Source: Escherichia coli O127:H6 str. E2348/69
GTDB taxonomy: Bacteria; Pseudomonadota; Gammaproteobacteria; Enterobacterales; Enterobacteriaceae
Reading direction: 5' to 3' (one strand)
DNA: 64,000 nucleotides
Assembly (NCBI RefSeq): GCF_000026545.1
Contig: NC_011601.1
Shown here one piece after another: positions 15,229-61,866 of the stretch. Position 1 is the first letter of the stretch; the number at the start of each line of letters is the position of its first letter. The notes under the pieces were generated by a model. That model searched no databases and was not told where the DNA came from. It saw only the letters and a program-made list of their open reading frames with translations. A program made the position numbers and the translations under genes.

Positions 15229-15580
15229 CCTTTCTCCCACAAATATCTAAACCTAAGTAAAGCGTGGAGTGTACTGGATATACCCAATGCTGGTTGAGCA
15301 TTTGTTGAAAAAATTTTCCCCCGTTTTGACTAAAATGCGCCAGGATTGATGGAATCATTAGTCTGGTGATTAGGAATAATCTGGATGAATGACAGGGAAA
15401 ACATGCGTAATACTTACGCAGTTCTCTGAAAAAGTGATTTAAATTTAGATGGATAGCGGTGTATGGAAACGTTCTGTTACATGAAATGGCCCGTTAGACA
15501 TCATAAATCGCGAAGAGTTTCCCATTAATTTTTGATATATTTAAAACTTAGGACTTATTTGAATCACATTTGAGGTGGTT

Positions 15581-16096
15581 ATGAAAAAAATTGCATGTCT
15601 TTCAGCACTGGCCGCAGTTCTGGCTTTCACCGCAGGTACTTCCGTAGCTGCGACTTCTACTGTAACTGGCGGTTACGCACAGAGCGACGCTCAGGGCCAA
15701 ATGAACAAAATGGGCGGTTTCAACCTGAAATACCGCTATGAAGAAGACAACAGCCCGCTGGGTGTGATTGGTTCTTTCACTTACACCGAGAAAAGCCGTA
15801 CTGCAAGCTCTGGTGACTACAACAAAAACCAGTACTACGGCATCACTGCTGGTCCGGCTTACCGCATTAACGACTGGGCAAGCATCTACGGTGTAGTGGG
15901 GGTGGGTTATGGTAAATTCCAGACCACTGAATACCCGACCTACAAACACGACACCAGCGACTACGGTTTCTCCTACGGTGCTGGTCTGCAGTTCAACCCG
16001 ATGGAAAACGTTGCTCTGGACTTCTCTTACGAGCAGAGCCGTATTCGTAGCGTTGACGTAGGCACCTGGATTGCCGGTGTTGGTTACCGCTTCTAA
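15581..16096 (+). CDS. ompX: outer membrane protein X
   Basis: MKKIACLSALAAVLAFTAGTSVA signal peptide; 171 aa; C-terminal ...GVGYRF beta-barrel signature. Confidence 0.95.
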   Translation: MKKIACLSALAAVLAFTAGTSVAATSTVTGGYAQSDAQGQMNKMGGFNLKYRYEEDNSPLGVIGSFTYTEKSRTASSGDYNKNQYYGITAGPAYRINDWASIYGVVGVGYGKFQTTEYPTYKHDTSDYGFSYGAGLQFNPMENVALDFSYEQSRIRSVDVGTWIAGVGYRF

Positions 16097-16111
16097 TCAC
16101 TTCGGTGATAT

Positions 16112-16818
16112 AAAAAATCCGCCTCTCGGGGCGGATTTTTTTGTGCACAGAAAACCCCCAGCTAGGCTGGGGGTTCCGGAAAGCTTTCAGCTTTGAGCCA
16201 GTTATTAAAACCCCTTTTGATTTGTTAAAACACCTTGCGGTCTGGCAACTGCAAGTGTCAAACAAGAAATCAAAAGGGGGTCCCAATGGGGAACGAAAAG
16301 AGCTTAGCGCACACCCGATGGAACTGTAAATATCACATAGTATTTGCGCCAAAATACCGAAGACAGGTGTTCTACAGAGAGAAGCGTAGAGCAATAGGCT
16401 GTATTTTGAGAAAGCTGTGTGAGTGGAAAAGTGTACGGATTCTGGAAGCTGAATGCTGTGCAGATCATATCCATATGCTTGTGGAGATCCCGCCCAAAAT
16501 GAGCGTATCCGGCTTTATGGGATATCTGAAAGGGAAAAGCAGTCTGATGCTTTACGAGCAGTTTGGTGATTTGAAATTCAAGTACAGGAACAGGGAGTTC
16601 TGGTGCAGAGGGTATTACGTCGATACGGTGGGTAAGAACACGGCGAAGATACAGGATTACATAAAGCACCAGCTTGAAGAGGATAAAATGGGAGAGCAGT
16701 TATCGATTCCCTATCCGGGCAGCCCGTTTACGGGCCGTAAGTAACGAAGTTGGATGCAAATGTCAGATCGTGTGCGCCTGTTAGGGCGCGGCTGGTAAGA
16801 GAGCCTTATAGGCGCATT
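16112..16818 (+). mobile_element. IS200 insertion sequence (IS200/IS605 family); boundaries approximate
   Basis: Y1 transposase gene flanked by the two characteristic structures: an A-tract/GC-hairpin/T-tract at 16112-16146 plus palindrome acccccagc-tag-gctgggggt, and a stem (ccccttttgattt / aaatcaaaagggg) that overlaps the tnpA RBS. A ~707 bp element with tnpA at ~175-633 fits these coordinates. Confidence 0.8.
16286..16744 (+). CDS. tnpA: IS200 transposase TnpA (HuH Y1 transposase)
   Basis: 152 aa from MGNEKSLAHTRWNCKYHIVFAPKYRR...; HxH motif (DHIHML) and near-identity to recalled IS200 TnpA. Confidence 0.9.
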   Translation: MGNEKSLAHTRWNCKYHIVFAPKYRRQVFYREKRRAIGCILRKLCEWKSVRILEAECCADHIHMLVEIPPKMSVSGFMGYLKGKSSLMLYEQFGDLKFKYRNREFWCRGYYVDTVGKNTAKIQDYIKHQLEEDKMGEQLSIPYPGSPFTGRK

Positions 16819-16856
16819 TGAAAAACCTCCGGCTATGCCGGAGGATATTTATTGTT

Positions 16857-18440
16857 TTAAGGTTTCGGGTCGAAAATATCGGTTCCGAGATGGTTGTAAT
16901 CCACCTTCTGTAACTGGAAGTTGGTGATGTATATCGGCCCGGCTTTCTTCTCAGATATAAACGGGTATTTGATATTTATTTCCTTCGCTTTAATTCCCGT
17001 CCACTGCGAGAAAAAGCCTAAGAAGTCATTGGCCGAGCGGCGGGCTTTAATCACCCGATGCGCTTTATCGTCGCTGGAAATGACCATAAAAGGCACCTGG
17101 AAATTTTGCTGATACTTATCATCATGGGCAAGGTATTGCACGTCTTTGCCGCGCTCTTTAAAGGCCAGACCGTGGTCGGAAAAGTAAACCAGCGAGAAGC
17201 TGCTGCCGCTGTTGCGTAACTGATCGTACAGCTTGCGCAGTAAATTGTCTGTTTGCGTCATGGTATAGAGATAGCACGACGTTTCTTTCGATTGCACAAA
17301 GGTTTCGTATTTGCCTTGTGTCCGGTCGCAGGCCTGCGGATGCGAGCCCATCAGATGTAGAACAATCAGCTGCGGTTGCGAGTGCTCTTGCGCCAGCACT
17401 TGAGCGGTCATATCCAGTAACGCTTCGTCTTTCGTGTTTTTATCTGCTTCAAAATTACCTTCTTTCAGGAAGTACACTTCATCTGCTCGTTTGGCGATGC
17501 TGGCGATGGCGGTATCGTATTCGCCGATTTGACCCTGGTTGGAAAACCACCAGGTCTGGAAGCCCGCGCGATTTGCCAGGGTGACAAAGTTATCCTGAAA
17601 CTGTGGTTTGCCATCGACAACGCGATTGAGCGTTAAGCCAAGCGATTTCTGCGTGGAGCCACTGGCGGCAATGTAGTCAGCAAATATCAAACCGTTAACG
17701 CTGCTGGCAAACGGGGTATTGTCCCAGTGACCGCCAAAGGCACCGAGGGCATCGCGACGCGCGCTTTCTCCGATCACCACCACATAGGTCTGATACTTCG
17801 GCTTAACGGCAGTGACCGTCCAGGTATCTTTCATTCCGGAAAGTTTTGCCATCCGTTCTTGCTCTTCAATCACCTCGTTATTATTGACGATGACATCCTT
17901 AGCAAAACGAAATACCGGATAGCCAGTATCTTTCAGTTTAAATACGCCGCCCCAGGCCAGGTTTTGCACGGGAGCAACAAAAAATGTCGCCGCACTGAAT
18001 ACCAGGCACAGGCTGTCGAAGGTATTCCAGCGCGCTTTTTCACTCTCTTTTTTTCGCCTGATTGCTATTACGCCGAGCGCAAAAATAAATATGCCGACCA
18101 GGTAGCTGTACCACGGAAAAATCGTCAGGATTTCGGTCGACTCTTCCATATTGGTGGAGTGCAATGCCAGCAATGTATTGAAGTTAGGCGCGCCGTAGGC
18201 CTGAGCAAAAGGGAAATAACAAGCCGCCACCAGCGAACTGATACCGACCAGAACTTTTTGTACGCGAGGCAATGTTCGCCATAGCAAAAGCAAAATAGCC
18301 GTAAACGCAGCGGTGTAGAGCAAACTGAAGGGGTAACCTAAGCCGAGGTTAATTAATAGCGACTGTAAAAAGTAGAACGCAGTCCACGGGCTAAATACCC
18401 GGCTACGGGTAACAAGCGATTCTTTGAGGGTTAAATTCAT
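16857..18440 (-). CDS. opgE: phosphoethanolamine transferase for osmoregulated periplasmic glucans
   Basis: 527 aa; N-terminal TM helices plus sulfatase-like domain. Confidence 0.9.
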   Translation of the reverse strand: MNLTLKESLVTRSRVFSPWTAFYFLQSLLINLGLGYPFSLLYTAAFTAILLLLWRTLPRVQKVLVGISSLVAACYFPFAQAYGAPNFNTLLALHSTNMEESTEILTIFPWYSYLVGIFIFALGVIAIRRKKESEKARWNTFDSLCLVFSAATFFVAPVQNLAWGGVFKLKDTGYPVFRFAKDVIVNNNEVIEEQERMAKLSGMKDTWTVTAVKPKYQTYVVVIGESARRDALGAFGGHWDNTPFASSVNGLIFADYIAASGSTQKSLGLTLNRVVDGKPQFQDNFVTLANRAGFQTWWFSNQGQIGEYDTAIASIAKRADEVYFLKEGNFEADKNTKDEALLDMTAQVLAQEHSQPQLIVLHLMGSHPQACDRTQGKYETFVQSKETSCYLYTMTQTDNLLRKLYDQLRNSGSSFSLVYFSDHGLAFKERGKDVQYLAHDDKYQQNFQVPFMVISSDDKAHRVIKARRSANDFLGFFSQWTGIKAKEINIKYPFISEKKAGPIYITNFQLQKVDYNHLGTDIFDPKP

Positions 18441-47770: not shown

Positions 47771-48054
47771 AACTTCCCGACACAAAGTGATTAAAAGGGA
47801 GCCAATACAGGCAAGTCGTTGAGAATAAAGTGCAGGTTAAACTGGGTAAAGCGGCATCGTCTTATTTCCCTCAAGCGGCCTGTTTACGGTAGGTGATTGT
47901 AACGGGCAAAGGTTAAATAAAACTTAAAGAAAGCGTAGCTATACTCGCAATAATGTAAGAATGTGCTTAACAGTGGTTTCAGCTACAAAATTTGCTTTCT
48001 CGTTAGCTGCGCTTTTATTAAACTTTGCGCGATTATTATTGGCGAAGAAATTGC

Positions 48055-49287
48055 ATGCAAAATAAATTAGCTTCCGGTGCCAGGCTTGGACGTCAGGCGT
48101 TACTTTTCCCTCTCTGTCTGGTGCTTTACGAATTTTCAACCTATATCGGCAACGATATGATTCAACCCGGTATGTTGGCCGTGGTGGAACAATATCAGGC
48201 GGGCATTGATTGGGTTCCTACTTCGATGACCGCGTATCTGGCGGGCGGGATGTTTTTACAATGGCTCCTGGGGCCGTTGTCGGATCGTATTGGCCGCCGT
48301 CCGGTGATGTTGGCGGGAGTGGTGTGGTTTATTGTCACCTGTCTGGCAATATTACTGGCGCAAAACATTGAACAATTCACCCTGTTGCGCTTCTTGCAGG
48401 GCATAAGCCTCTGTTTCATTGGCGCTGTGGGATACGCCGCAATTCAGGAATCCTTCGAAGAGGCGGTTTGTATCAAGATCACCGCGCTGATGGCGAACGT
48501 GGCGCTGATTGCTCCGCTACTTGGTCCGCTGGTGGGCGCGGCGTGGATCCATGTGCTGCCCTGGGAGGGGATGTTTGTTTTGTTTGCCGCATTGGCAGCG
48601 ATCTCCTTTTTCGGTCTGCAACGAGCCATGCCTGAAACCGCCACGCGTATAGGCGAGAAACTGTCGCTGAAAGAACTCGGTCGTGACTATAAGCTGGTGC
48701 TGAAGAACGGCCGCTTTGTGGCGGGGGCGCTGGCGCTGGGATTCGTTAGCCTGCCGTTGCTGGCGTGGATCGCCCAGTCGCCGATTATCATCATTACCGG
48801 TGAGCAGTTGAGCAGCTATGAATATGGTTTGCTGCAAGTGCCTATTTTCGGGGCGTTAATTGCGGGTAACTTGCTGTTAGCGCGTCTGACCTCGCGCCGC
48901 ACCGTACGTTCGCTGATTATTATGGGCGGCTGGCCGATTATGATTGGTCTGTTGGTCGCTGCTGCGGCAACGGTTATCTCATCGCACGCGTATTTATGGA
49001 TGACCGCCGGGTTAAGTATTTATGCTTTCGGCATTGGTCTGGCGAATGCGGGACTGGTGCGATTAACCCTGTTTGCCAGCGATATGAGTAAAGGTACGGT
49101 TTCTGCGGCGATGGGAATGCTGCAAATGCTGATCTTTACCGTCGGTATTGAAATCAGCAAACATGCCTGGCTGAACGGGGGCAACGGACTGTTTAATCTC
49201 TTCAACCTTGTCAACGGCATTTTGTGGCTGTCGCTGATGGTTATCTTTTTAAAAGATAAACAGATGGGAAATTCGCACGAAGGGTAA
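48055..49287 (+). CDS. mdfA: multidrug efflux MFS transporter
   Basis: Start trimmed to [14 protein letters not shown]... (410 aa); 12-TM MFS. Confidence 0.95.
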
Positions 49288-49293
49288 AAAAAT

Positions 49294-49322
49294 GCCTGAT
49301 TGCTTTGTGCGATCAGGCATTC
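49294..49322. terminator. bidirectional terminator between mdfA and ybjH
   Basis: atgcctgat-tgctttgtgcg-atcaggcat hairpin flanked by A and T runs. Confidence 0.6.
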
Positions 49323-49327
49323 TCGAA

Positions 49328-49612
49328 TTAATGGTGATGGTCGTCAATCTGGTGTTCGATAACCATCCCTTCACTTACGCTGGCAAGATGGCGAACATAA
49401 GGATGCGGGCGGTAAGCCGGAGCTGGCGCAGGAGCCACATAGACGGTTTGCGGCACAGTCGCGACGCTGACCGCTTGTGGAACGCTGACTGAATCAGGAA
49501 CCACAACCACTTTGTATCCACTCGGCACATCGACGGTGACACTTTGCGCCATCGCCACACCAGTAAAGCCCATTAAAAGCGCGCCCAACAGTAGACAATT
49601 TTTCATAATCAT
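49328..49612 (-). CDS. ybjH: small secreted protein of unknown function
   Basis: 94 aa with signal peptide. Confidence 0.85.
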   Translation of the reverse strand: MIMKNCLLLGALLMGFTGVAMAQSVTVDVPSGYKVVVVPDSVSVPQAVSVATVPQTVYVAPAPAPAYRPHPYVRHLASVSEGMVIEHQIDDHHH

Positions 49613-49697
49613 TTTGCCTGAAATAATGCAGTGGGTTAATTTCCGCGAATTATGCAGCCTTCATTCAGGCATTGTGTTGCCGGGCGTGCTGCCGTTT

Positions 49698-50513
49698 TTA
49701 TTGCTTAAATGGCACTTCGTGTTTAAGAACTTTATCGATCACATCCAGTACGCCTTCACGGTTATTGGAGCCTGCCCGGTATTTAGCCGCTGCGACGACC
49801 GCGCTGCCGGCATTTTCCATTGCAAAACTAAAGCCTGCTTGACGCAGCATCTCAATATCGTTACCACCATCGCCAAAGACCACCACTTCGCTGTCGTCTA
49901 TTCCCCATAATTTCTGCAGTTGGCGAAGGCCATTGGCTTTATGTACACCGGGGATAATCAGATCGATGCTGCCGTTGCCGGTATGGACCGGTACCATGAT
50001 ATCGCCGATGGCCTCATGTAATGCTTTTTGCACTTGTGGGATCAGTTCGTCAGAGAGATTAAGGCCAAATTTAAAGAAGATATCTTCTAAGTTGTCAAAG
50101 TTATCGACGTATTCCAGACGGTGATAATACATTTCCGCCACCGTTTTCATGGCATCGTCATATTTTTTGAGGGTATAGGCGCTATTTTTTCCGCAGGCAA
50201 TAATTTCCACTTCCGGGCGCGTCAGCAAATGTTCCACGACAGTAGTAAACGCATCCTTCGACAGCTCGCCATTAAAAACATCTTTGCCTTCGCTCACTAC
50301 CCAGCCGCCGTTTTCAGCCACAAAGGCAATTTCATTAGCAATTTCAGGAAAGAAAGAGATCAACTGATAATATTGATTCCCGCTGGCGACCACAAAGCGA
50401 ATGCCTTGTGCTTTCATTTGCTGATACTGAGCCATAAACCGCTCACGGTTATAGGTTTTTTGATCGCTTAAGAAAGTACCATCCATGTCTACCGCAATTA
50501 ATTTAATGCTCAT
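49698..50513 (-). CDS. ybjI: HAD-superfamily (Cof-type) phosphatase
   Basis: 271 aa from [15 protein letters not shown]...; paralogous to ybiV; overlaps ybjJ stop. Confidence 0.9.
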   Translation of the reverse strand: MSIKLIAVDMDGTFLSDQKTYNRERFMAQYQQMKAQGIRFVVASGNQYYQLISFFPEIANEIAFVAENGGWVVSEGKDVFNGELSKDAFTTVVEHLLTRPEVEIIACGKNSAYTLKKYDDAMKTVAEMYYHRLEYVDNFDNLEDIFFKFGLNLSDELIPQVQKALHEAIGDIMVPVHTGNGSIDLIIPGVHKANGLRQLQKLWGIDDSEVVVFGDGGNDIEMLRQAGFSFAMENAGSAVVAAAKYRAGSNNREGVLDVIDKVLKHEVPFKQ

Positions 50514-51721
50514 CAACTATTCTCCATCGCCGTCTGCGTTTTGGTATCGGGTTTGGCGACGGCTTTCGCGACAATAGCCGCGAGAATAACCAGCGCCAGT
50601 ACAACCATCATTGCACTACGTAATCCATAATGTTCGCCGAGATAGCCCAGCAGCGGCGGCCCGACGAGGAAAGCCAGATAACCGGTCGTAGCTACCACGC
50701 TGACGCGGGTTGGTGCATCGGGGCCGGTATCGCTGGCGGCAGAAATAGTCAGCGGGAAGCCCAACGAGGCACCCAGTCCCCAAAGTACAACAGACACCCC
50801 AGCGACCCAGGCGCTATCGACAAAAATAATCAGCCCAATACCCAACGCCCCCATTAGTGCACTGGCCCGAACCACGGCAACGCGACTGTAACGGTCAATG
50901 AACCAACCGCCGGTAAAGCGTCCAACGGTCATCCCCAGGGTAAAACCGGCATAAATCAGCGAGCCGGAAGTAGGGCTAAAACCGTGACCGTCAACCATTA
51001 ATAAGGGTAACCAGTCGTTGGCAGAACCTTCGGCAAAGGCCATCGCCAGCACCACAACACCAATCAGCAGCAACTGGATATCGCGATAAAAAGGTACGCC
51101 TTTTTCACCATGCTGGGTGCCATCGGCAGCATTTTTGCCCGTACCGTCAGGGATTGCCTGAATGGCGATATAAATAGGTGCGATGCCTACCAGCGCCGCC
51201 AATAAAATATGCACCGTTGCCGGAACGCCAAAGGCCGTAAGTGCCATCCCGACACCTGCGCCTGCCAGAGTGCCCAGGCTATAAAAACCGTGCATCATCG
51301 GTAAAACCGTCTTATTCATTTCTCTCTCAACGGTGGCACCTTCAACGTTTATCGCCACTTCCGCAGAACCAAAACTAGCCCCAAAGACGCCGAGACCAAC
51401 GGCAAAGAGCAAGGGCGATGTCAGCCAGAGTGCCAGACTTAATATCATCATCCCAATCAATGCGCAGGACATCGTCACAAGGATGACATTACGCGTCCCA
51501 AAGCGTTTCACTAACCACGCCGAGCAGAGAATACCGCTCATTGAACCGATCGACAGACCAAAGAGGACTCCGCCCATTTCAGCGATCGAAACAGAAAGAA
51601 TATCGCGGATAGCAGGCGTACGGGTTGCCCAGGACGCCATTAACAGGCCCGGCAAAAAGAAGAACATAAACAGCGCCCAGGTTCGGCGTTTCAATGCATT
51701 ACGTGAAGAATTTACGGTCAT
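50513..51721 (-). CDS. ybjJ: MFS transporter
   Basis: 402 aa polytopic membrane protein. Confidence 0.9.
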
Positions 51722-51804
51722 AGATCACGTCAAAATAAGAAGAGGGAAGACAACATTAGCAAGGTTGTGTACATTTGTACACAATTGCAGAGAGAGGAAA
51801 TGAC

Positions 51805-52341
51805 ATGCGTCGCGCTAACGATCCGCAACGGCGAGAAAAAATTATCCAGGCCACGCTGGAGGCGGTGAAACTTTACGGAATACATGCTGTTACACACCGC
51901 AAAATTGCTACCCTTGCCGGGGTGCCGTTGGGATCGATGACCTACTATTTTTCAGGCATTGATGAGTTGTTGCTGGAGGCGTTCAGCCGTTTTACTGAGA
52001 TCATGTCCCGGCAATATCAGGCATTTTTTAGCGATGTTAGTGATGCTCCAGGCGCATGCCAGGCTATCACCGATATGATCTACAGCTCACAGGTCGCAAC
52101 GCCGGATAATATGGAGCTGATGTACCAGCTCTACGCGCTGGCTAGCCGAAAACCGCTATTAAAAACGGTAATGCAAAACTGGATGCAGCGCAGTCAACAA
52201 ACGCTCGAACAATGGTTTGAACCCGGAACCGCCCGCGCGCTTGATGCGTTTATTGAGGGGATGACGCTGCATTTTGTCACCGACCGTAAGCCGCTATCAC
52301 GCGAGGAGATTTTGAGGATGGTTGAGAGGATTGCTGGGTAG
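51805..52341 (+). CDS. rcdA: TetR-family transcriptional regulator RcdA
   Basis: Start trimmed to [10 protein letters not shown]... (178 aa); N-terminal TetR HTH. Confidence 0.9.
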
Positions 52342-52445
52342 TAGATAAATTTCAGGCAACAAAAAACCCATTTATGTAAACGGGTTAATGAAAACAATAA
52401 CTTAGAGTAAAAACAATAAGTTGGGTTGGTGGTCAGTGGTGGTTA

Positions 52446-53498
52446 TTACGGGGTAATGCCAACCGCTGCCGCCACTTTGTCGCCACTTGGCAGCGTTGCC
52501 AGAGGATTGAAACGGAGCGCCGTTTCCAGATGATCCGGTGCCAGATGTGCGTAACGCATAGTCATTTTTATATCGTGGTGTCCGAGAATTTTTTGTAAAG
52601 CCAGAATGTTTCCACCCGACATCATGAAGTGCGCCGCAAACGTATGGCGCAGAACGTGTGTGGGTTGACCGCGAGGGAGCACGATAGACGTTTTTTCCAT
52701 CACGGATAAAAATTGAAAATAGCAGTCTGTGAAGAAATTGAACCCATCAAGCGCCATGATCTCTTCGTAAAGCTCTTTACTGATAGGGATGCTTCTGTTT
52801 TTCTTCCCCTTCGCTCTTACAAAGGTAATTCGGTATTTGGTCACCTGTGAGCGGGTAAGATTTACGTCTTCTCGCCAGCGTGCGCCTGTGCTTAAGCATA
52901 TCTTAACTACCAGTGCCAGAATTGGGTCCTGACGTTTGCAATCAGCTAGTAATTCAACAATCTGCTCATGGGTAAGCCATGCCATCTCTTTTTCTGCGAT
53001 GGTGAATTTTCGCATGTTCTCCAGTGGGTTCGGATACGACCATTCGCCCAGGCGGGATAGTTCGCTAAAAACACTACTTAGATAGCTTTGCTCCAGGTTA
53101 ATGGTGACCGGGCTTGCTCCTTTCTTCCATTTCTCACTGAAGTAGATCTCACCTGTCAGGCGTTTATCTCGATAGTGGGCAAACATTTTAGAGGTTAGAT
53201 CAGTTGCAAGGGGATTGCCCAGAGCGTCAACCATCAGCAGCAATTTGTCATAGACATGCTGCCCAGCAGTCAGAGATTTACCATGTAGTTTGAACCATAG
53301 CTCAACCACGTCTTTCAGTGTTCGACGATCCACTGATTCACCCAGCCAGGGCTTTGCTTCGGTTTCTTCCATCGTGTGACGCTCAAAAGCCAGTGCTTCG
53401 CCTTTGGTGGCGAATTGTTTACGCACACGACGCCCACTACGTCCGGCGGGGTAACATTCGCAAAGCCATTTTCCTGTGGTGAGTTTTCGTACTGCCAT
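52446..53498 (-). CDS. int: phage integrase (tyrosine recombinase, P2/186 type)
   Basis: 350 aa; N-terminus MAVRKLTTGKWLCECYPAGRSGRRVRKQFATKGEALAFE and catalytic-domain motifs (LSTGARW, LRHTFAAHFMMSGGNILALQKILGH, MRYAHLAP) match recalled 186 Int. Confidence 0.9.
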   Translation of the reverse strand: MAVRKLTTGKWLCECYPAGRSGRRVRKQFATKGEALAFERHTMEETEAKPWLGESVDRRTLKDVVELWFKLHGKSLTAGQHVYDKLLLMVDALGNPLATDLTSKMFAHYRDKRLTGEIYFSEKWKKGASPVTINLEQSYLSSVFSELSRLGEWSYPNPLENMRKFTIAEKEMAWLTHEQIVELLADCKRQDPILALVVKICLSTGARWREDVNLTRSQVTKYRITFVRAKGKKNRSIPISKELYEEIMALDGFNFFTDCYFQFLSVMEKTSIVLPRGQPTHVLRHTFAAHFMMSGGNILALQKILGHHDIKMTMRYAHLAPDHLETALRFNPLATLPSGDKVAAAVGITP

Positions 53499-53584
53499 AA
53501 TAAAGCCCTCATATCAGAGGGCTAAATTTAACTGTATGTTTGACCAGTGGTCAATGTATGGTTTAGTTTATTCAAACAATGCTT

Positions 53585-55102
53585 TTAATCAAATGATGTG
53601 GCCAGTTCAATTAATTCAATGTAATTATGTAAGGCATAAAAAGATGTATTCAGACCATTCTCTATAAGGGCTCCTTGCAAATACTTTATAGCTGTATCAC
53701 CATCAATAGGGCCTTGTTGAGATATAATCATTAGTGAATTTTGCCCATTGTTTTTTATACTTGATTTAAGCATGTTTATATTATTAATAAAATACAATGC
53801 AACATCTAAGTAATTTATTAATGTTAAATTTATTTTGGGCTCAATCTGTGAGATGAATAATCTACTGCTCGCCGTTCTATAGATATAATTGACACCTATT
53901 CTTTGCTGATTTGTATCAAGATTTAATTCAAGGATGGCTTGAGAAACACCTTTTAAATTGGAGCTTTGCTTTATCGAATCAGTGAAACGTTGTGCTGCAT
54001 TTCTTCGACCAATTAGTCCATCTATAATTTGACGTTCCTTATCATATATAATCATTAGCGAAATTATAAAAATATAATCTACTTTCTTTTTGACTAAATC
54101 AGATTTAAGAATGTCTATTAACCTTTCAGTATTTCGGATTGAGTCTCTTAGATTTAACCCAAATGCTTCAAATACGTTGGAAATATTTATTGAAAAGTCT
54201 TCTAATGTTGCTGTTAGTGGGTGTGTTTTTGATGTGATATTTTCAAAATCGGTACCAATATAATCACCAACAACACCATTAATTAAATCTTTAAGCTCAG
54301 GTTGTTTTAAAGTAAATCTTCTATGAAAAAAACGGCCTAAATAGTCATTTGCGGAAAAATCATTACCGTAAACATTCTTGATTGAATGTTGTAATTGATC
54401 TGTGTCAGTAGCAATAATAAAGACAAAATTTTTAATATCGAATATATGTTTAACAATCTCTAAAAGAGAAATTGCATAATCTGGCCTGCATCTGTCTAAT
54501 TCATCTATAAAGATAAATATAGGACATGAAAAACTATTTTCATATGCCAACCTAGACCATAACGTTAGTTCTTTTTTTAATACCTTAATGCTCTTCAGTT
54601 TTTCCTGGTGTTCCTTCAGCATTATTAATGAGGCTTCTTTGGCTATATCACCTACGTTATCTACTCCTGCATAAGTCTTGATTAGGCCAGATATGATTTC
54701 AGGTAGAACACCTTTTGTAAAGCGTCCGATAGCATGGCCGCTTTGTATCAATCGAGCATCAAGTTTTCCTGCATATGTTTGCAATTGTTGTGACAAAGAA
54801 GAAAAAAGGGTTAAAAATGCATCATCAGAAAAGTCTTGCTTCCAGGCATCAATGTAAACGCATGGGTGTGCATCTTTTATTGAGTTATAAAATCTCTTTA
54901 TGAAAAAACTTTTACCAGCTCCCCATTCTGCATTAAGGTTGATTACCGTGTTGTTCTTTTGCCCCTTTTCCTTAAGATAAAAATATAGATATTCTGCATA
55001 GTGTCTCCGATTAAGTTTGTCTTTGGAAAGAATTTCCTCTTCGTCGTCTAATATAAAGGTAGTTTCTTCATCCCAGTTCCAATTACAATCACCACATTTC
55101 AC
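53585..55102 (-). CDS. KAP-family P-loop NTPase (prophage cargo; candidate anti-phage protein)
   Basis: 505 aa; GTG start with GGAGA RBS; Walker A AEWGAGKS (res 58-65) and Walker B IFIFIDELDRC typical of KAP NTPases; long Asn/Ile/Lys-rich C-terminal region; AT-rich. Confidence 0.7.
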   Translation of the reverse strand: MKCGDCNWNWDEETTFILDDEEEILSKDKLNRRHYAEYLYFYLKEKGQKNNTVINLNAEWGAGKSFFIKRFYNSIKDAHPCVYIDAWKQDFSDDAFLTLFSSLSQQLQTYAGKLDARLIQSGHAIGRFTKGVLPEIISGLIKTYAGVDNVGDIAKEASLIMLKEHQEKLKSIKVLKKELTLWSRLAYENSFSCPIFIFIDELDRCRPDYAISLLEIVKHIFDIKNFVFIIATDTDQLQHSIKNVYGNDFSANDYLGRFFHRRFTLKQPELKDLINGVVGDYIGTDFENITSKTHPLTATLEDFSINISNVFEAFGLNLRDSIRNTERLIDILKSDLVKKKVDYIFIISLMIIYDKERQIIDGLIGRRNAAQRFTDSIKQSSNLKGVSQAILELNLDTNQQRIGVNYIYRTASSRLFISQIEPKINLTLINYLDVALYFINNINMLKSSIKNNGQNSLMIISQQGPIDGDTAIKYLQGALIENGLNTSFYALHNYIELIELATSFD

Positions 55103-55127
55103 TATGAAGTCTCCATGAAAAATTTAC

Positions 55128-56051
55128 TTAATGTAAACAACTTATAATAACTTTTGCAATAAACTCAATGTCTGTAAGCGAACATTCAAAAGAGTGATTT
55201 TGGGATGAAATATAAACTCGTCCTTTAGGTAGTCGAGTTATCATTCTAAATGAATTCTCTCCATCAATATTTACTAGCCACTTACCATCATGTACATCTT
55301 TAAAACCCATTTCACATATTAATTCAGAGTCTTCGGTAGATACTACGAATGCATTTTTTAAATTGGAAGGTAGAAAGCATGGGTCAAATAAATATGAGCC
55401 ATCATTTATTAACTTGCCATTGATTAATACTTTTTTCACTAATGTTAAAGTATCTTTATTTTTTGCGTTTTTCATTTCTCCTGTACCAAATGAAATCCAT
55501 TCAATAGAATGGCCCGTTTCTATTGCACACTGCAAAACCCAGTCTGCAGGAAAAATGTCACGCATGTATCGTGTGGCTAATGTGCTTTTTGAAATACCTA
55601 GGTGATCAGCTAATGCTTGGCGCGTTTTGTAACCGTAAGCCTCGACAATTCGTTCTATTGTTGCCTTACCCCCTCGGTTAAAATTCATGAGTTTTTCATT
55701 ATCGAACTTTATAGTGGGAATGTATACTTCATTGCAAAGGCCATTAACGGCATGTTTTTCAGAATATTGCTCTGATGAAGGAGCAGTATCTGAACCAAGA
55801 ACTAACCATTCAATTGATGCTCCTGTTTCTATGGAACATATAACAACCCAATCTGCAGGAAAGGTATTACGTGCATATCTGTTGGCCATAGTACTTTGGG
55901 AAATACCTAGATGATTACATAATGCCTGTCGTGACTTGAAGCCATAGGCTAGGAGTATACGCTCAATAACTTTTTGCCCTCCACGATTCTGCATAACTAT
56001 TGCTTTCAGATCGTTTTTGATATGGCTAAATTTTAATTTTTGAGTTGACAT
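55128..56051 (-). CDS. CI-like repressor paralog with tandemly duplicated N-terminal DNA-binding domain
   Basis: 307 aa; residues ~20-85 and ~120-190 are two copies of the domain (IERxxxAYGxKxRQALxxHLGISxSTxAxRYxRxxFPAxWVxxCxxETGxSxxWL) found once in the adjacent CI; C-terminal domain is paralogous to the CI C-terminus. Start could alternatively be the Met at residue 20. Confidence 0.75.
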   Translation of the reverse strand: MSTQKLKFSHIKNDLKAIVMQNRGGQKVIERILLAYGFKSRQALCNHLGISQSTMANRYARNTFPADWVVICSIETGASIEWLVLGSDTAPSSEQYSEKHAVNGLCNEVYIPTIKFDNEKLMNFNRGGKATIERIVEAYGYKTRQALADHLGISKSTLATRYMRDIFPADWVLQCAIETGHSIEWISFGTGEMKNAKNKDTLTLVKKVLINGKLINDGSYLFDPCFLPSNLKNAFVVSTEDSELICEMGFKDVHDGKWLVNIDGENSFRMITRLPKGRVYISSQNHSFECSLTDIEFIAKVIISCLH

Positions 56052-56101
56052 ATTTTTTACACCACAACAAATGCTTTACCAAGCATAAAAACATTCCTAT
56101 A

Positions 56102-56677
56102 TTACTCAAAGTACTTAACTGTTATGCTTATAATTTTTCCAATAATTTCGATTTCTTCTTTTTTACATTCGAAAGCCCTATTTCCACCTTCAACTAAGAT
56201 TCTTCCACCAGGTAAACGAGTGATATCGCGGATTGTTACTTCGGCATCAATACTTATTACCCATTTGCCGTCACGAATATCGTTAAACTCTTTATCGCAA
56301 ATAAAAACGGAATTGTTATCGGTGATTACAAACGGATTTTTGAGCGTAGATGGTAGAAATTCTTTATCGAAAATATAAAAACCATCTTCCTGCAAGGTTC
56401 CATCAGATAATACATATTTAACGACTTCCATAGTATTTGTATTACCTGAAGTTTGCTTTGAACCATGTCCGGTCGTGAGCCAGTTAAGCGAGGCGCCCGT
56501 TTCAAGTGCGCACTGGATTACCCATTCAGCAGGGAATGAGTCACGCATATAGCGTGTGGCGAGAGTACTTTTAGAGATTCCTAAGTGATCGCACAACGCC
56601 TGTCGAGTCTTGAAGCCATATGCTTCTACCATGCGCTCTATAGCGCCTCGTCCGCCTTTCTCCAAACTCATGGTCAC
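56102..56677 (-). CDS. cI: prophage immunity repressor CI (186 type)
   Basis: 191 aa; divergent from the apl/cII operon; N-terminal domain resembles recalled 186 CI (...AYGF...CALETGA..W..TG); start may be the ATG at 56671 instead. Confidence 0.75.
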   Translation of the reverse strand: MTMSLEKGGRGAIERMVEAYGFKTRQALCDHLGISKSTLATRYMRDSFPAEWVIQCALETGASLNWLTTGHGSKQTSGNTNTMEVVKYVLSDGTLQEDGFYIFDKEFLPSTLKNPFVITDNNSVFICDKEFNDIRDGKWVISIDAEVTIRDITRLPGGRILVEGGNRAFECKKEEIEIIGKIISITVKYFE

Positions 56678-56796
56678 TCCAAGTGAACTTTTGTCTTGAC
56701 GATTTCATTATGCGATCGCATGTTTATGGTGTTCACAAAATGCAAACGATCCGTATTCGTCCTGATTAATCAACATTAAACGAGGAATGTTGCATC
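56678..56796. promoter_or_regulatory. prophage immunity switch region (early lytic promoter and candidate CI operators)
   Basis: Divergent intergenic region with TTGACG -35-like hexamer (56696-56701), perfect 12-bp palindrome ATGCGATCGCAT (56710-56721), and flanking inverted repeat GTGAAC...GTTCAC (56683-56688 / 56731-56736). Confidence 0.45.
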
Positions 56797-57018
56797 ATGA
56801 AACCTAACATTTCAATCACTCTTACCACGCCTCATGTGACTATTGAACGTTATAGCGAGCTGACAGGGCTATCCATCGATACTATCAATGACATGTTGGC
56901 TGATGGACGTCTTATCCGTCACCGTCTGCGGAAAGATAAAAAACGCGAAAAAGTGATGATCAACATAGCAGCCATGACCGTTGATGCGCTTTCAGAATGC
57001 AATCTAAACCTTAATTAG
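56797..57018 (+). CDS. Apl/Cox-like HTH excisionase-regulator
   Basis: 73 aa; first gene of the rightward operon with GAGGAA RBS; position matches 186 apl / P2 cox. Confidence 0.55.
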
Positions 57019-57050
57019 TTCGATTCTGAAATACATCAGAGGCATTGACC

Positions 57051-57560
57051 ATGTTTGATTACCAAGTTTCCAAACACCCGCATTTTGATGAAGCCTGTAG
57101 AGCTTTTGCACTTCGTCACAATATGGCGAAGCTGGCAGAACGTGCAGGAATGAATGTCCAGACTCTGCGAAACAAACTCAACCCAGATCAACCGCATCAG
57201 CTCAATGCGCCAGAAATCTGGCTGCTTACCGATCTGACTGAAGATTCAACGCTGGTAGATGGCTTTCTGGCACAGATTCACTGCCTGCCATGTGTACCGA
57301 TTAATGAGGTGGCAAAAGAGAAACTGCCGCATTACGTCATGAGTGCAACTGCAGAGATAGGGCGTGTCGCGGCAGGTGCGGTTTCTGGCGATGTAAAAAC
57401 CAGTGCAGGCCGTCGTGATGCGATCAGCAGCATTAACTCTGTTACACGACTGATGGCGCTGGCTGCTGTTTCATTGCAGGCCCGTTTACAGGCTAATCCT
57501 GCGATGGCGAGTGCAGTTGATACCGTGACTGGCCTCGGTGCTTCATTCGGTTTGCTGTGA
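57051..57560 (+). CDS. cII: CII-like lysogeny establishment regulator (186 type)
   Basis: Start trimmed to [45 protein letters not shown]...; closely matches recalled 186 CII over its full length. Confidence 0.85.
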
Positions 57561-57567
57561 GGTGCTT

Positions 57568-57768
57568 ATGCTGACGAAAGAACCATCATTTGCATCGCTG
57601 CTGGTAAAACAAAGTCCGGCAATGCACTACGGTCACGGCTGGATCATGGGTGAGGATGGTAAACGCTGGCATCCGTGCCGTTCACAAGATGAATTGCTGG
57701 CAGAACTATCAACGAAAAAACGGGGGAACCAATGGCTATTGAAGGCGCTGCGGCGACTGTTCCATTAA
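57568..57768 (+). CDS. hypothetical phage early protein
   Basis: 66 aa from MLTKEPSF...; sits where 186 carries fil; no recognisable motif. Confidence 0.4.
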   Translation: MLTKEPSFASLLVKQSPAMHYGHGWIMGEDGKRWHPCRSQDELLAELSTKKRGNQWLLKALRRLFH

Positions 57769-58073
57769 GCCCCGGTGAACGCCTGAATGGACTTAATCAT
57801 ATTGCGGAATTAAGAGCGAAAGTTTTTGGCCTGAATATTGAGTCAGAGCTTGAGCGGTTTATTAAAGATATGCGTGATCCACGGGATATCAATAATGAAC
57901 AAAATAAACGGGCACTGGCTGCCATATTCTTTATGGCAAAAATTCCAGCTGAACGTCATAGCATCAGCATTAATGAGCTGACCACTGACGAAAAGCGGGA
58001 GCTGATTAAAGCAATGAATCATTTTCGTGCAGTGGTGAGCTTATTTCCCAGACGGCTAACCATGCCGAATTAA
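57732..58073 (+). CDS. hypothetical phage early protein
   Basis: 113 aa ORF in the early operon; start uncertain (overlaps previous gene by 37 nt). Confidence 0.4.
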   Translation: MAIEGAAATVPLSPGERLNGLNHIAELRAKVFGLNIESELERFIKDMRDPRDINNEQNKRALAAIFFMAKIPAERHSISINELTTDEKRELIKAMNHFRAVVSLFPRRLTMPN

Positions 58074-58140
58074 CCAACTAATGAAATTCATGGCGTAAAC
58101 CCGCCAGGCATCCCTTTATCTAAATTCAGGAGAATTGATT

Positions 58141-58374
58141 ATGCGTAATATTGAAACCCTCACGACTAAAACCGGACCGGATGATGCAGGGCTTAATATT
58201 TTACTGACAGAGGCTCGTCTGGAAGAACGCCGGGCAAGGGCTGAAGCAATGGCAGCTCGCCTTGATAGCCTGGCGTGTCATATCACATCCCGCCAGCTAA
58301 ACCACGTCGAAGCGGCAGAACTGCTGCGTGTGACTGCTGAAGCAATCCAGAACGAAGCGCAGGAGATCCACTGA
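58141..58374 (+). CDS. hypothetical phage early protein
   Basis: 77 aa from MRNIETLTTK...; CAGGAGAA RBS 6 nt upstream; stop overlaps next start (TGATG). Confidence 0.5.
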   Translation: MRNIETLTTKTGPDDAGLNILLTEARLEERRARAEAMAARLDSLACHITSRQLNHVEAAELLRVTAEAIQNEAQEIH

Positions 58375-58601
58375 TGGCTGATGCAATGGATCTCGTACAG
58401 CAGCGCGTTGAAGAAGAACGCCAGCGTCATATCCGTGCTGCCCGCGCCAAAACGCCGGGCGTATCCCGCGTGCTTTGCATTGAGTGTGAAGCACCAATTC
58501 CGCCAGCACGACGTCGCGCCATTCCGGGTGTGCAGCTTTGCATTACCTGTCAGGAAATCGCAGAGCTGAAAGGCAAACATTACAACGGAGGTGCTGTATG
58601 A
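58374..58601 (+). CDS. phage TraR/DksA-family C4 zinc-finger protein
   Basis: 75 aa; CIECEAPIPPARRRAIPGVQLCITCQ is paralogous to chromosomal YbiI (CEECGAPIPQARREAIPGVRLCIHCQ). Confidence 0.75.
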   Translation: MADAMDLVQQRVEEERQRHIRAARAKTPGVSRVLCIECEAPIPPARRRAIPGVQLCITCQEIAELKGKHYNGGAV

Positions 58602-59455
58602 GCACCATCCTGAAATGGGCGGGTAATAAAACCGCCATTATGCCAGAACTGAAAAAATACCTTCCTGCTGGCCCGCGACTGGTTGAACCTTTCGCGGGTT
58701 CTTGTGCTGTGATGATAGAGACGGATTACCCCAGCTATCTTGTTGCGGATATTAATCCTGATTTAATCAACCTCTATAAAAAGGTTGCTGCTGATTGCGA
58801 GGCGTTTATATCTCGTGCCAGAGCTTTATTTGAGGAAGCAAACAGGGAGGTGGCTTATTACAACATAAGGCAGGAGTTTAATTACTCCACTGAAATTACT
58901 GATTTCATGAAAGCGGTATATTTCCTGTATCTCAATCGTCATGGTTACCGTGGGTTATGTCGCTATAACAAGAGCGGGCATTTCAACATTCCCTACGGGA
59001 ATTATAAAAATCCGTATTTCCCTGAAAAAGAAATTCGCAAATTTGCAGAAAAAGCCCAGCGAGCAACGTTTATCTGCGCCAGCTTTGATGAAACGCTGGC
59101 GATGTTGAAGGCGGGGGATGTGGTGTATTGCGATCCGCCTTATGACGGTACGTTTTCCGGCTATCACACTGATGGCTTCACTGAGGATGACCAGTATCAC
59201 CTGGCATCCGTTCTTGAACATCGATCATCTGAAGGTCATCCGGTCATTGTTTCTAACAGTGACACATCCCTGATTCGTTCGCTGTATCGCAATTTCACTC
59301 ACCACTACATCAAGGCAAAACGCAGCATCGGCGTGTCGGCTGGCGAGAGTAAATCTGCAACAGAAATCATTGCTGTTTCCGGGGCGCGCTGCTGGGTGGG
59401 ATTTGATCCTTCGCGTGGCGTGGATAGTTCTGCTGTGTACGAGGTGCGTGTATGA
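58598..59455 (+). CDS. dam: phage DNA adenine methyltransferase (Dam-like)
   Basis: 285 aa from [12 protein letters not shown]... with GGAGG RBS; FAGSCAV SAM-binding motif and DPPY catalytic motif. Confidence 0.85.
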
Positions 59456-61866
59456 GTCATGATGATATGAGCAACTCTAGCGGCTTTAACGAGGCCGCTG
59501 CAGCATTTTCATGGAACGGCCCGAAAAAGGCCATTAACCCTTATCTGGATCCGGCGGAAGTTGCGCCGGAGTCTGCACTTTCAAACATGATCACTCTGTA
59601 CGCTGCCGATAACGAGCAGGAACAGCTGCGCCGCGATGCACTGAGTGAGCAGGTCTGGGAGCGTTATTTCTTTAATGAATCCCGTGATCCTGTCCAGCGC
59701 GAAATGGAGCAGGATAATCTCATTAGTCGGGCAAAGCTGGCGCATGATCAGCAGCGTTTTAACCCGGACATGGTCATTCTGGCGGACGTCAGCGCCCAGC
59801 CCACCCACATCAGCAAGCCGCTGATGCAACGTATCGAATACTTCAGCAGCCTGGGCAGGCCAAAGGCTTATTCCCGCTATTTGCGTGAGACGATTAAGTC
59901 ATGTCTGGAGCGACTGGAGTATGTACGCGACAGTCAGCTATCCGCTTCTTTCCGTTTTATGGCAAGCCATCAAGGGCTTGAGGGCCTGCTGATCCTGCCT
60001 GAAATGAGTCAGGATCAGGTAAAACGCCTGTCCACCTTGGTAGCAGCGCATATGAGCATGTGTCTTGAGGCCGCTTGTGGTGATTTGTATGCCTCCGATG
60101 ACGTTAAGCCAGAAGAAATCCGCAAGACATGGGAAAAGGTGGCAGCGGAAACCCTGCGTCTGGATGTTATCCCGCCTGCGTTTGAGAAACTCCGTCGGAA
60201 AAGAAACCGCCGCAAACCCGTGCCCTATGAACTCATACCGGGTTCGCTGGCACGTATGCTTTGCGCCGACTGGTGGTATCGAAAATTGTGGAAGATACGT
60301 TGCGAATGGCGGGAAGAGCAGTTGCGTGCTGTCTGCCTGGTCAGCAAAAAAGCATCTCCCTATGTCAGCTATGAAGCAGTGACGCATAAACGTGAGCAGC
60401 GCCGCAAGTCGCTGGAGTTTTTCCGTTCTCATGAACTGGTGAACGAAGACGGCGACACGCTGGATATGGAAGACGTGGTAAACGCCAGCAGCAGCAACCC
60501 GGCGCACCGCCGCAATGAGATGATGGCCTGTGTTAAAGGTCTGGAGCTTATCGCGGAAATGCGTGGTGACTGCGCCGTTTTCTACACCATTACCTGTCCG
60601 TCACGTTTCCATTCTACGCTCAATAACGGCAGACCAAACCCAACCTGGACAAATGCGACGGTAAGACAAAGCAGCGATTATCTGGTCGGCATGTTTGCTG
60701 CATTTCGTAAGGCTATGCACAAAGCCGGGTTGCGCTGGTATGGCGTGCGGGTGGCTGAGCCGCACCATGACGGTACTGTGCACTGGCATCTCATGTGTTT
60801 CATGCGCAAAAAAGACCGCCGCGCCATTACTGCATTGTTGCGTAAGTTTGCCATCCGTGAAGACCGCGAGGAACTGGGCAATAACACGGGTCCACGCTTT
60901 AAGTCTGAGCTGATAAACCCGCGCAAAGGAACGCCGACAAGCTACATCGCGAAATACATCAGTAAGAACATTGACGGACGTGGTCTGGCTGGCGAGATCA
61001 GCAAGGAAACGGGTAAATCCCTGCGTGATAACGCCGAATACGTTAATGCCTGGGCGTCTCTGCATCGTGTTCAGCAGTTCCGCTTCTTTGGTATTCCGGG
61101 GCGTCAGGCGTACCGTGAACTTCGCTTGCTGGCTGGTCAGGCGGCAAGGCAACAGGGTGACAAAAAAGCAGGTGCGCCGGTACTGGATGACCCGCGCCTT
61201 GATGCCATCCTGGCTGCCGCTGATGCTGGCTGTTTTGCCACCTACATCATGAAGCAGGGCGGCGTACTGGTTCCCCGCAAATATCACCTTATCAGAACAG
61301 CTTATGAAATTAACGAAGAGCCGACCGCTTATGGCGATCACGGTATTCGTATTTATGGCATCTGGTCACCCATTGTACAGGGCAAGATCTGCACTCATGC
61401 AATGAAATGGAAAATGGTTCGTAAGGTCGTTGACGTTCAGGAGGCGGCAGCCGACCAGGGCGCTTGCGCCCCTTGGACTCGTGGCAATAACTGTCCCCTT
61501 GCTGAAAATTTGAACCGACAGGAGAAAGATAAATCAGCTGATGGGGACCCCAGAACGGACATTACCCGCATGGATGACAAGGAGTTACACGATTACCTGC
61601 ACAGTATGAACAAAAAGGAGCGCCGGGAACTGGCTGCAAGGTTACGTCTGGTGAAACCGAAACGGCGTAGAGACTACAAACAGCGAATTACAGACCATCA
61701 ACGACAGCAGCTCGTCTATGAACTGAAATCCAGAGGATTTGATGGCAGCGAGAAAGAGGTCGATTTACTCCTTCGCGGCGGCAGTATTCCGTCAGGAGCT
61801 GGCCTGCGTATCTTCTATCGGAACCAGCGTTTGCAGGAAGATGATAAGTGGCGGAACCTGTATTAA
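59452..61866 (+). CDS. A: phage replication initiation protein A (HuH rolling-circle endonuclease)
   Basis: 804 aa; HuH motif (VHWHLMCF) followed later by tyrosine-containing region ([10 protein letters not shown]); positional equivalent of P2/186 gene A. Confidence 0.8.

Follow-up and report, generated by a model that had tools for sequence, protein, structure and literature searches.

The IS200/IS605 family is the origin of the TnpB and IscB tools, and by the rule of the family the target lies outside the left end of an element and the right-end cleavage site inside it. Transposition in the family proceeds by way of a circular intermediate of single-stranded DNA. In Salmonella enterica IS200, which has a reported length of 707 bp, Ellis et al. 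(2015, PMC4513863) describe a terminator hairpin at nt 12–34, a stem-loop at nt 69–138 that sequesters the Shine–Dalgarno (SD) sequence, and STnc490/art200, antisense to the tnpA 5′UTR and with 5′ ends at nt 153/154. In IS608 from Helicobacter pylori, guide tetranucleotides pair with the sites of cleavage and with the target (PMC5934647), and the family preferentially has the active (top) strand on the lagging-strand template (PMC5027513).

The window analysed here is a stretch of 64,000 nt from Escherichia coli O127:H6 strain E2348/69. Positions 16143–16853 (+ strand) constitute an intact IS200C (IS200 group, IS200/IS605 family), inserted without target-site duplication immediately after the T-tract that closes the native bidirectional ompX/opgE terminator, with tnpA co-oriented with ompX, a reading to which we assign a probability of about 0.9. 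Like Salmonella IS200, the element has tnpA alone, a left-end terminator hairpin, an SD-sequestering stem-loop in the 5′UTR and a full-length match to the Rfam family built on IS200, but it is the 711-bp E. coli variant IS200C rather than the 707-bp element, and its art200 and 5′UTR-derived sRNA are putative. It shares with IS1541 of Yersinia pestis an identical right end (GAAAAACCTCCGGCTATGCCGGAGGATATTTATT), an identical left-end hairpin and a position directly after a hairpin and T-tract, though IS1541 differs in its leader (GTGCCCAG, against GTGCACAG in IS200C), its high copy number and its head-to-tail dimers. The Y1 HUH transposase (2a6m, 2vhg and 2xm3 matched at 1e-16 to 1e-18), the subterminal hairpins, the lack of a duplication, insertion 3′ of a short target adjoining the left end and the lagging-strand template preference are as in IS608 and ISDra2; unlike these, IS200C is without tnpB and its target is T-rich (TTTNTT), not TTAC or TTGAT.

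In a sequence search, positions 15950–17000 were 100% identical to E. coli E2348/69 NZ_CP059840.2, in which the RefSeq gene order is ompX, IS200C tnpA and convergent opgE, and tnpA is labelled "IS200/IS605-like element IS200C family transposase" (WP_000526113.1). The ompX coding sequence lies at 15581–16096 (+) according to the RefSeq annotation of this identical stretch and carries the Pfam domains OMP_b-brl and Ail_Lom. The phosphoethanolamine transferase gene opgE lies at 16857–18440 (−) in the ORF list and in RefSeq, with a Pfam Sulfatase domain; it is convergent with ompX, and its stop codon (16857–16859) is 3 nt off the right end of the IS. In the identical sequence of E2348/69, RefSeq also places a small protein of 21 codons, YliM, at about 15463–15528 (+), in the interval from rhtA to ompX. 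Elsewhere in the window, the GC content over 48000–60000 is 0.43–0.45 versus 0.50–0.54 in the rest, and this low-GC segment may have been acquired horizontally. The placing of an IS200-type element between ompX and convergent opgE by the sequence-only reading was thus borne out by both RefSeq and the Y1_Tnp match. The insertion is real but ordinary, a known, RefSeq-annotated and intact IS200C in a much-studied strain, and a literature search found no paper on IS200 at ompX.

The limits of the element were set by comparing filled with empty sites, using anchored string comparison, as a MAFFT alignment of filled against empty sites put the large gap in the wrong place. In K-12 MC4100 the empty spacer reads ...AAAAAATCCGCCTCTCGGGGCGGA-TTTTT-G-TTTTT-AAGGTTTCGGG, with the junction form GGCGGA-T5-G-T5-AAGG. 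The empty site of strain 21310, whose flanks are closer to those of the window than K-12's are, reads GGCGGA-T7-GTTTTAAGG, that is, GGCGGA-TTTTTTT-GTTTT-AAGG. The window reads GGCGGA-TTTTTTT-(GTGCACAG ... GGAGGATATTTATT)-GTTTT-AAGG, and removal of the 711 bp at 16143–16853 leaves exactly the empty site of strain 21310, free of any duplication; removal of the IS from the other junction types, found in other filled strains, leaves the K-12 empty site. The prediction that K-12 lacks the element here held: comparison with its ompX–opgE spacer showed an empty site devoid of IS sequence, and MC4100 and BL21 each carried the empty spacer only, in one place. With TT at the end of the left flank and GT at the start of the right flank, the boundaries are ambiguous by ±2 nt; among these options, 16143–16853 is favoured by the family rule and by the tandem copies of Y. 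pestis.

Comparison with other copies gave the same termini. The similarity between the window and five to six other IS200C copies is confined to (TT)GTGCACAG ... TATTTATT or ...GGAGGATATTTATT, and the sequences diverge directly outside it. Five of the comparison copies (L004–L008) occupy unrelated loci, four of them downstream of dgcZ, mdh, cutC and pqqU and one beside an IS4 fragment. Over the whole element, identity to RefSeq-annotated IS200C copies in other E. coli was 99.0–99.6%. In E. coli DETEC-P836 (L004), the IS200C downstream of dgcZ adjoins mgtT, which RefSeq marks as incomplete with its C-terminus missing; this insertion may have truncated the small gene.

The limits of 16112–16818 previously proposed from the letters of the window were accordingly wrong at both ends, the left lying 31 nt too far out and the right 35 nt short, so that the right-end hairpin (16826–16844) and the tail (16845–16853) were omitted. 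Under that proposal, the hairpin at 16112–16146 would be the left end of the IS, replacing or supplementing the ompX terminator. The hairpin does directly adjoin the IS and looks like a terminator, and a terminator hairpin close to the left end is known from IS200 (PMC4513863). However, IS-free K-12 and strain 21310 also have this hairpin, A and T tracts included, the other IS200C copies have nothing in common to the left of (TT)GTGCAC and all share the hairpin and tail at 16826–16853, and the published IS200 terminator at nt 12–34 corresponds to 16153–16175, not to 16112–16146. Already refuted by the empty-site comparison, the reading of the IS as 16112–16818 retains virtually no credence.

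The hairpin is instead the native bidirectional intrinsic terminator of ompX and opgE, which occupies 16112–16142 outside the IS, as indicated by the empty sites of MC4100 and 21310 and by folding. This settles a point on which the sequence-only reading had not decided. It comprises an A6 tract (16112–16117), a stem with a 6-bp GC core (16118–16123 paired with 16130–16135) and a T7 tract (16136–16142), folds at −20.2 kcal/mol (z = −4.0) and was present in every IS-free genome inspected, including K-12 MC4100 and 21310. A consensus terminator scan did not list the ompX terminator at 16112–16142, probably because the A and T tracts pair and absorb the T tail, and direct folding was used instead. 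Sub-threshold Rfam matches over 16054–16223 (STnc370, RNAI, leader families, P9 and ncS025) were rejected as generic hairpin-plus-T-run similarity to this terminator and the left-end hairpin of the IS.

The element itself begins with a leader, GTGCACAGAA (16143–16152, +), which leads into an A-run directly 5′ of the hairpin, at the position of the IS608 G_L guide. The end of the leader, GAAAAC, is conserved in related elements, and by analogy with IS608 (PMC5934647) the leader may serve as a guide sequence. The left-end hairpin, AACCCCCAGC-TAG-GCTGGGGGTT (16153–16175, +), is the predicted TnpA binding site and corresponds to the terminator at nt 12–34 of IS200 (PMC4513863); it folds at −19 kcal/mol and forms the first helix of a match to Rfam RF01405 (STnc490). 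This match, to the RNA element of the IS200 left end and tnpA 5′UTR (16153–16276, +), is full length (model positions 1–124) and scores 146.4 bits (gathering score 56; E = 2e-31). A long stem-loop at 16211–16279 (+), positioned like nt 69–138 of IS200 (PMC4513863), folds at −37.2 kcal/mol (z = −5.6) and buries the SD sequence. The antisense sRNA art200 is expected by homology at about 16205–16295 on the minus strand; with the tnpA start of the present element at about nt 145 in Salmonella IS200 numbering, the art200 5′ end at nt 153/154 falls on codon 3. The RF01405 "STnc490" match is on the tnpA-sense strand, and the Rfam model thus seems to represent the sense-strand 5′UTR structure and not the sRNA after which it is named.

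The tnpA gene (16286–16744, +) encodes a Y1 HUH transposase of 152 aa (WP_000526113.1), with a Pfam Y1_Tnp match at E = 1.7e-37 over profile positions 2–121 of 121. It aligns to the solved IS200-family transposases 2ec2, 2f4f, 2a6m/2vhg (IS608) and 2xm3 (ISDra2), and its H61-I62-H63 and Y125 are in register with DHIHLF and KKYIEEQ of 2ec2. At 459 nt, tnpA is the sole ORF with a family match in the 711-bp element, which cannot accommodate a TnpB of about 400 aa. The right end (16820–16853, +) consists of GAAAAA (16820–16825), the hairpin CCTCCGGC-TAT-GCCGGAGG (16826–16844) and the tail ATATTTATT (16845–16853), and its sequence is common to all other copies up to ...TATTTATT. The right-end hairpin matches the terminator scan on both strands, folding at −15.5 kcal/mol on the minus and −17 kcal/mol on the plus strand, and has the same shape as the left-end hairpin, from which it is two compensatory stem changes apart. 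Both hairpins are preceded by GAAAA(A), where IS608 has its guide tetranucleotides. No terminal inverted repeats were found, the first 30 nt matching the reverse complement of the last 30 nt at 8/30 positions. The claim of a complete IS200-type element was upheld by the Y1_Tnp and RF01405 matches and by termini identical to those of other copies. The sequence-only reading was also right that two characteristic subterminal hairpins are present, but the left one is at 16153–16175 and the right one, at 16826–16844, lies beyond the limit that it gave.

These limits bear on the 3′ ends of both neighbouring genes. Since the stem and all seven T's are the same as in the empty site of 21310, the ompX 3′ end should stay put, and ompX termination is predicted from sequence to be unchanged; the alteration of the ompX 3′ end previously suggested is thus unlikely. 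Any read-through from ompX would next meet the left-end hairpin, and tnpA is predicted to be doubly shielded, by the ompX terminator and by that hairpin. The neighbour with a changed 3′ context is predicted to be opgE, not ompX. In the empty site opgE ends about 8 nt before the shared terminator, from which the insertion would cut it off; on the opgE strand, the stop codon is now followed 12 nt later by CCTCCGGCATAGCCGGAGG-TTTTTC, a hairpin and T5 tract flagged as terminator-like by the scan. The right-end hairpin with T5 is probably a replacement opgE terminator, about 12 nt past the stop codon, and opgE read-through past it is predicted to yield RNA antisense to tnpA.

In a junction query, 79 of 5426 complete E. 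coli genomes had an IS so oriented at the ompX terminator, of which only three O127:H6 assemblies matched the E2348/69 junction at 100%. Inspection of seven of the 79 filled sites, the window and six other genomes, gave the following junction types: T7|IS|GTTTT in E2348/69; T5GTT|IS|TTT in four strains, which restores the K-12 allele; T6GTT|IS|TTT in L130, whose divergent IS has about 25 substitutions; and T7GTT|IS|TT. Because two junctions differ in the side of the IS on which GTT lies and one IS is divergent, the terminator tail appears to have been struck at least three to four times independently. Were all 79 filled sites instead descended from one ancient insertion, with junction differences produced by slippage of the T-tract, there would be no hotspot; homopolymer tract lengths do vary (T5, T6 and T7 were seen), and all copies in filled sites are co-oriented. 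Slippage, however, cannot move GTT from one side of the IS to the other, as between E2348/69 and L133; the IS variant of L130 differs from the others not only by its substitutions but also in its flank background; and the hosts are diverse, each filled form fitting T5GT5 or T7GT4, whichever is the empty-site allele of the background concerned. A single ancient insertion is therefore very improbable, and we retain recurrent insertion into the same tail.

A constructed junction for the opposite orientation matched 0 genomes, although the orientation bias at the ompX locus represents three to four independent events only. GC skew of the plus strand is positive in 12 of 15 intervals of 8 kb and slightly negative in three, with a cumulative value reaching +0.56. 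Taken together with the family preference (PMC5027513), this positive skew, the only indicator of strand used, suggests that the top strand of the IS is on the lagging-strand template.

The target was examined more widely by scanning for the left-end hairpin in one genome per species, which yielded 120 loci (L009–L128) spanning Enterobacterales (including IS1541 of Y. pestis), Vibrio, Oxalobacter, Sutterella, Desulfovibrionaceae, Bacillota, Saccharibacteria and others. The 94 unique left flanks among them were drawn by one hairpin sequence, and several come from multi-copy genomes; they represent distinct sites that are phylogenetically non-independent. A perfect-stem hairpin with a T tail adjoined the element in 63 of the 94 flanks, compared with a background of 0.25% at all positions and 4.6% at T-rich positions. 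The 31 flanks missed by the perfect-stem detector have imperfect stems or long loops, and folding free energies were therefore compared. Within the last 40 nt, 92.6% of the flanks fold at −8 kcal/mol or below and 97.9% at −6 kcal/mol or below (n = 94), against 5.6% and 7.2%, respectively, of T-rich ...TT controls from the same loci (Mann–Whitney p = 7e-52). Flank positions −6 to −1 read TTTNTT, with T at −1 in 91 and at −2 in 90 of the 94, and the right end of the element closes with TTTATT, which matches TTTNTT.

Several observations were made in the same set of loci. The 17-nt left-end hairpin is exactly conserved in Pseudomonadota, Bacillota, Desulfobacterota, Saccharibacteria and Elusimicrobiota (L009–L128), and its frequent position at the ends of contigs points to numerous collapsed copies in each genome. 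In Y. pestis NCTC5923 (L114, L115 and L117), IS1541 forms head-to-tail dimers in which a left end stands directly after ...GGAGGATATTTATT of another copy; such dimers would be expected if the right-end tail can act as a target. In Clostridia and Ruminococcus metagenome-assembled genomes (L028, L029 and L094–L102), other elements of the IS200 group carry the same hairpin, CCCCAGCTAGGCTGGGG(G), at their right end; either ATGCTTATT or ATATTTATT comes after it, and the flanks beyond vary. In Dickeya undicola (L088), at about 700–716 on the minus strand, a solo left-end hairpin is embedded in a longer perfect palindrome, TTTTTTGTCTATAGAAAAC-CCCCAGCTAGGCTGGGGG-TTTTCTATAGACAAAAAAA, which resembles either a bidirectional terminator or a miniature element derived from IS200.

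Considering these results, we propose the following scenario for target choice. From what is known of the family, the target would be a terminator hairpin with a TTTNTT tail, resembling the element's own right end (hairpin and ATATTTATT); reading this target would probably fall to the A-run that precedes the left-end hairpin, by analogy with the guide sequence of IS608. The most economical reading, on analogy plus statistics, is that an intrinsic terminator in single-stranded DNA may be taken for a right end and captured as a target. That IS200-group transposases actively pick intrinsic terminators in this way, a GC-rich hairpin with TTTNTT in single-stranded DNA mimicking the right end and being read by the A-run, is a tentative proposal, which we hold at less than even odds. 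The target of the IS200 group is almost always preceded by a hairpin, and for IS608 no such requirement has been described. Homing just after intrinsic terminators or attC hairpins, at the T-rich motif TTGT/T, is also ascribed to bacterial group IIC introns (PMC7923331); these consist of a ribozyme and a reverse transcriptase, and are unrelated in element and mechanism, so that the likeness is one of target choice only.

The main competing explanation is a loose T-rich target, with the position behind terminators reflecting post-insertion selection, that is, the survival of harmless and shielded insertions. Insertions just past a terminator would be neutral and tnpA protected from read-through; a 2025–26 preprint found terminator-like sequences most enriched upstream of IS200/IS605 elements and read them as limiting transposase expression; and the target of IS608 is read as a tetranucleotide only. 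Against this explanation, a stable upstream hairpin occurs at about 5–7% of T-rich ...TT sites in the same loci versus 93–98% of IS flanks, cleavage is at the fixed register TTTNTT|, every sampled left flank of Y. pestis IS1541 adjoins a hairpin or the right end of another copy, and at least three to four independent insertions fell inside a single tail of 11 nt at ompX. An account by selection only would also be weakened by the fact that Y. pestis copes with numerous disruptive IS insertions. We thus consider selection acting on loosely targeted insertions unlikely and keep active choice of terminators as our working proposal. IS1541 is reported to lie beside hairpins that look like terminators. 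Neither the right-end-mimicry mechanism nor the fixed TTTNTT register turned up in the searchable literature, though older IS1541 papers or reviews may cover part of them, and the literature search found no biochemical evidence on the IS200 transposase.

The main value of the present analysis at this locus is a correction: the native ompX terminator is intact, the IS is 711 bp long at 16143–16853, and it is opgE whose 3′ context is changed. The locus also illustrates how elements of the IS200 type insert just behind terminators and with a single orientation, which would explain why they are so quiet and well tolerated, and how they can be confused or merged with host terminators in annotation. 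The pattern of a terminator hotspot with right-end mimicry is a modest addition, and the literature may describe it only in part. If terminators are indeed actively chosen, then wherever a gene is replicated co-directionally, as ompX is, its terminator would be a hotspot that is hit repeatedly and in a specific orientation, in bacteria of different phyla, and every insertion would give the convergent neighbour a new inward-facing terminator. If the hairpin with TTTNTT reflects active targeting, the least-studied of the classic members of the family would furthermore have a target code that is simple and open to testing.
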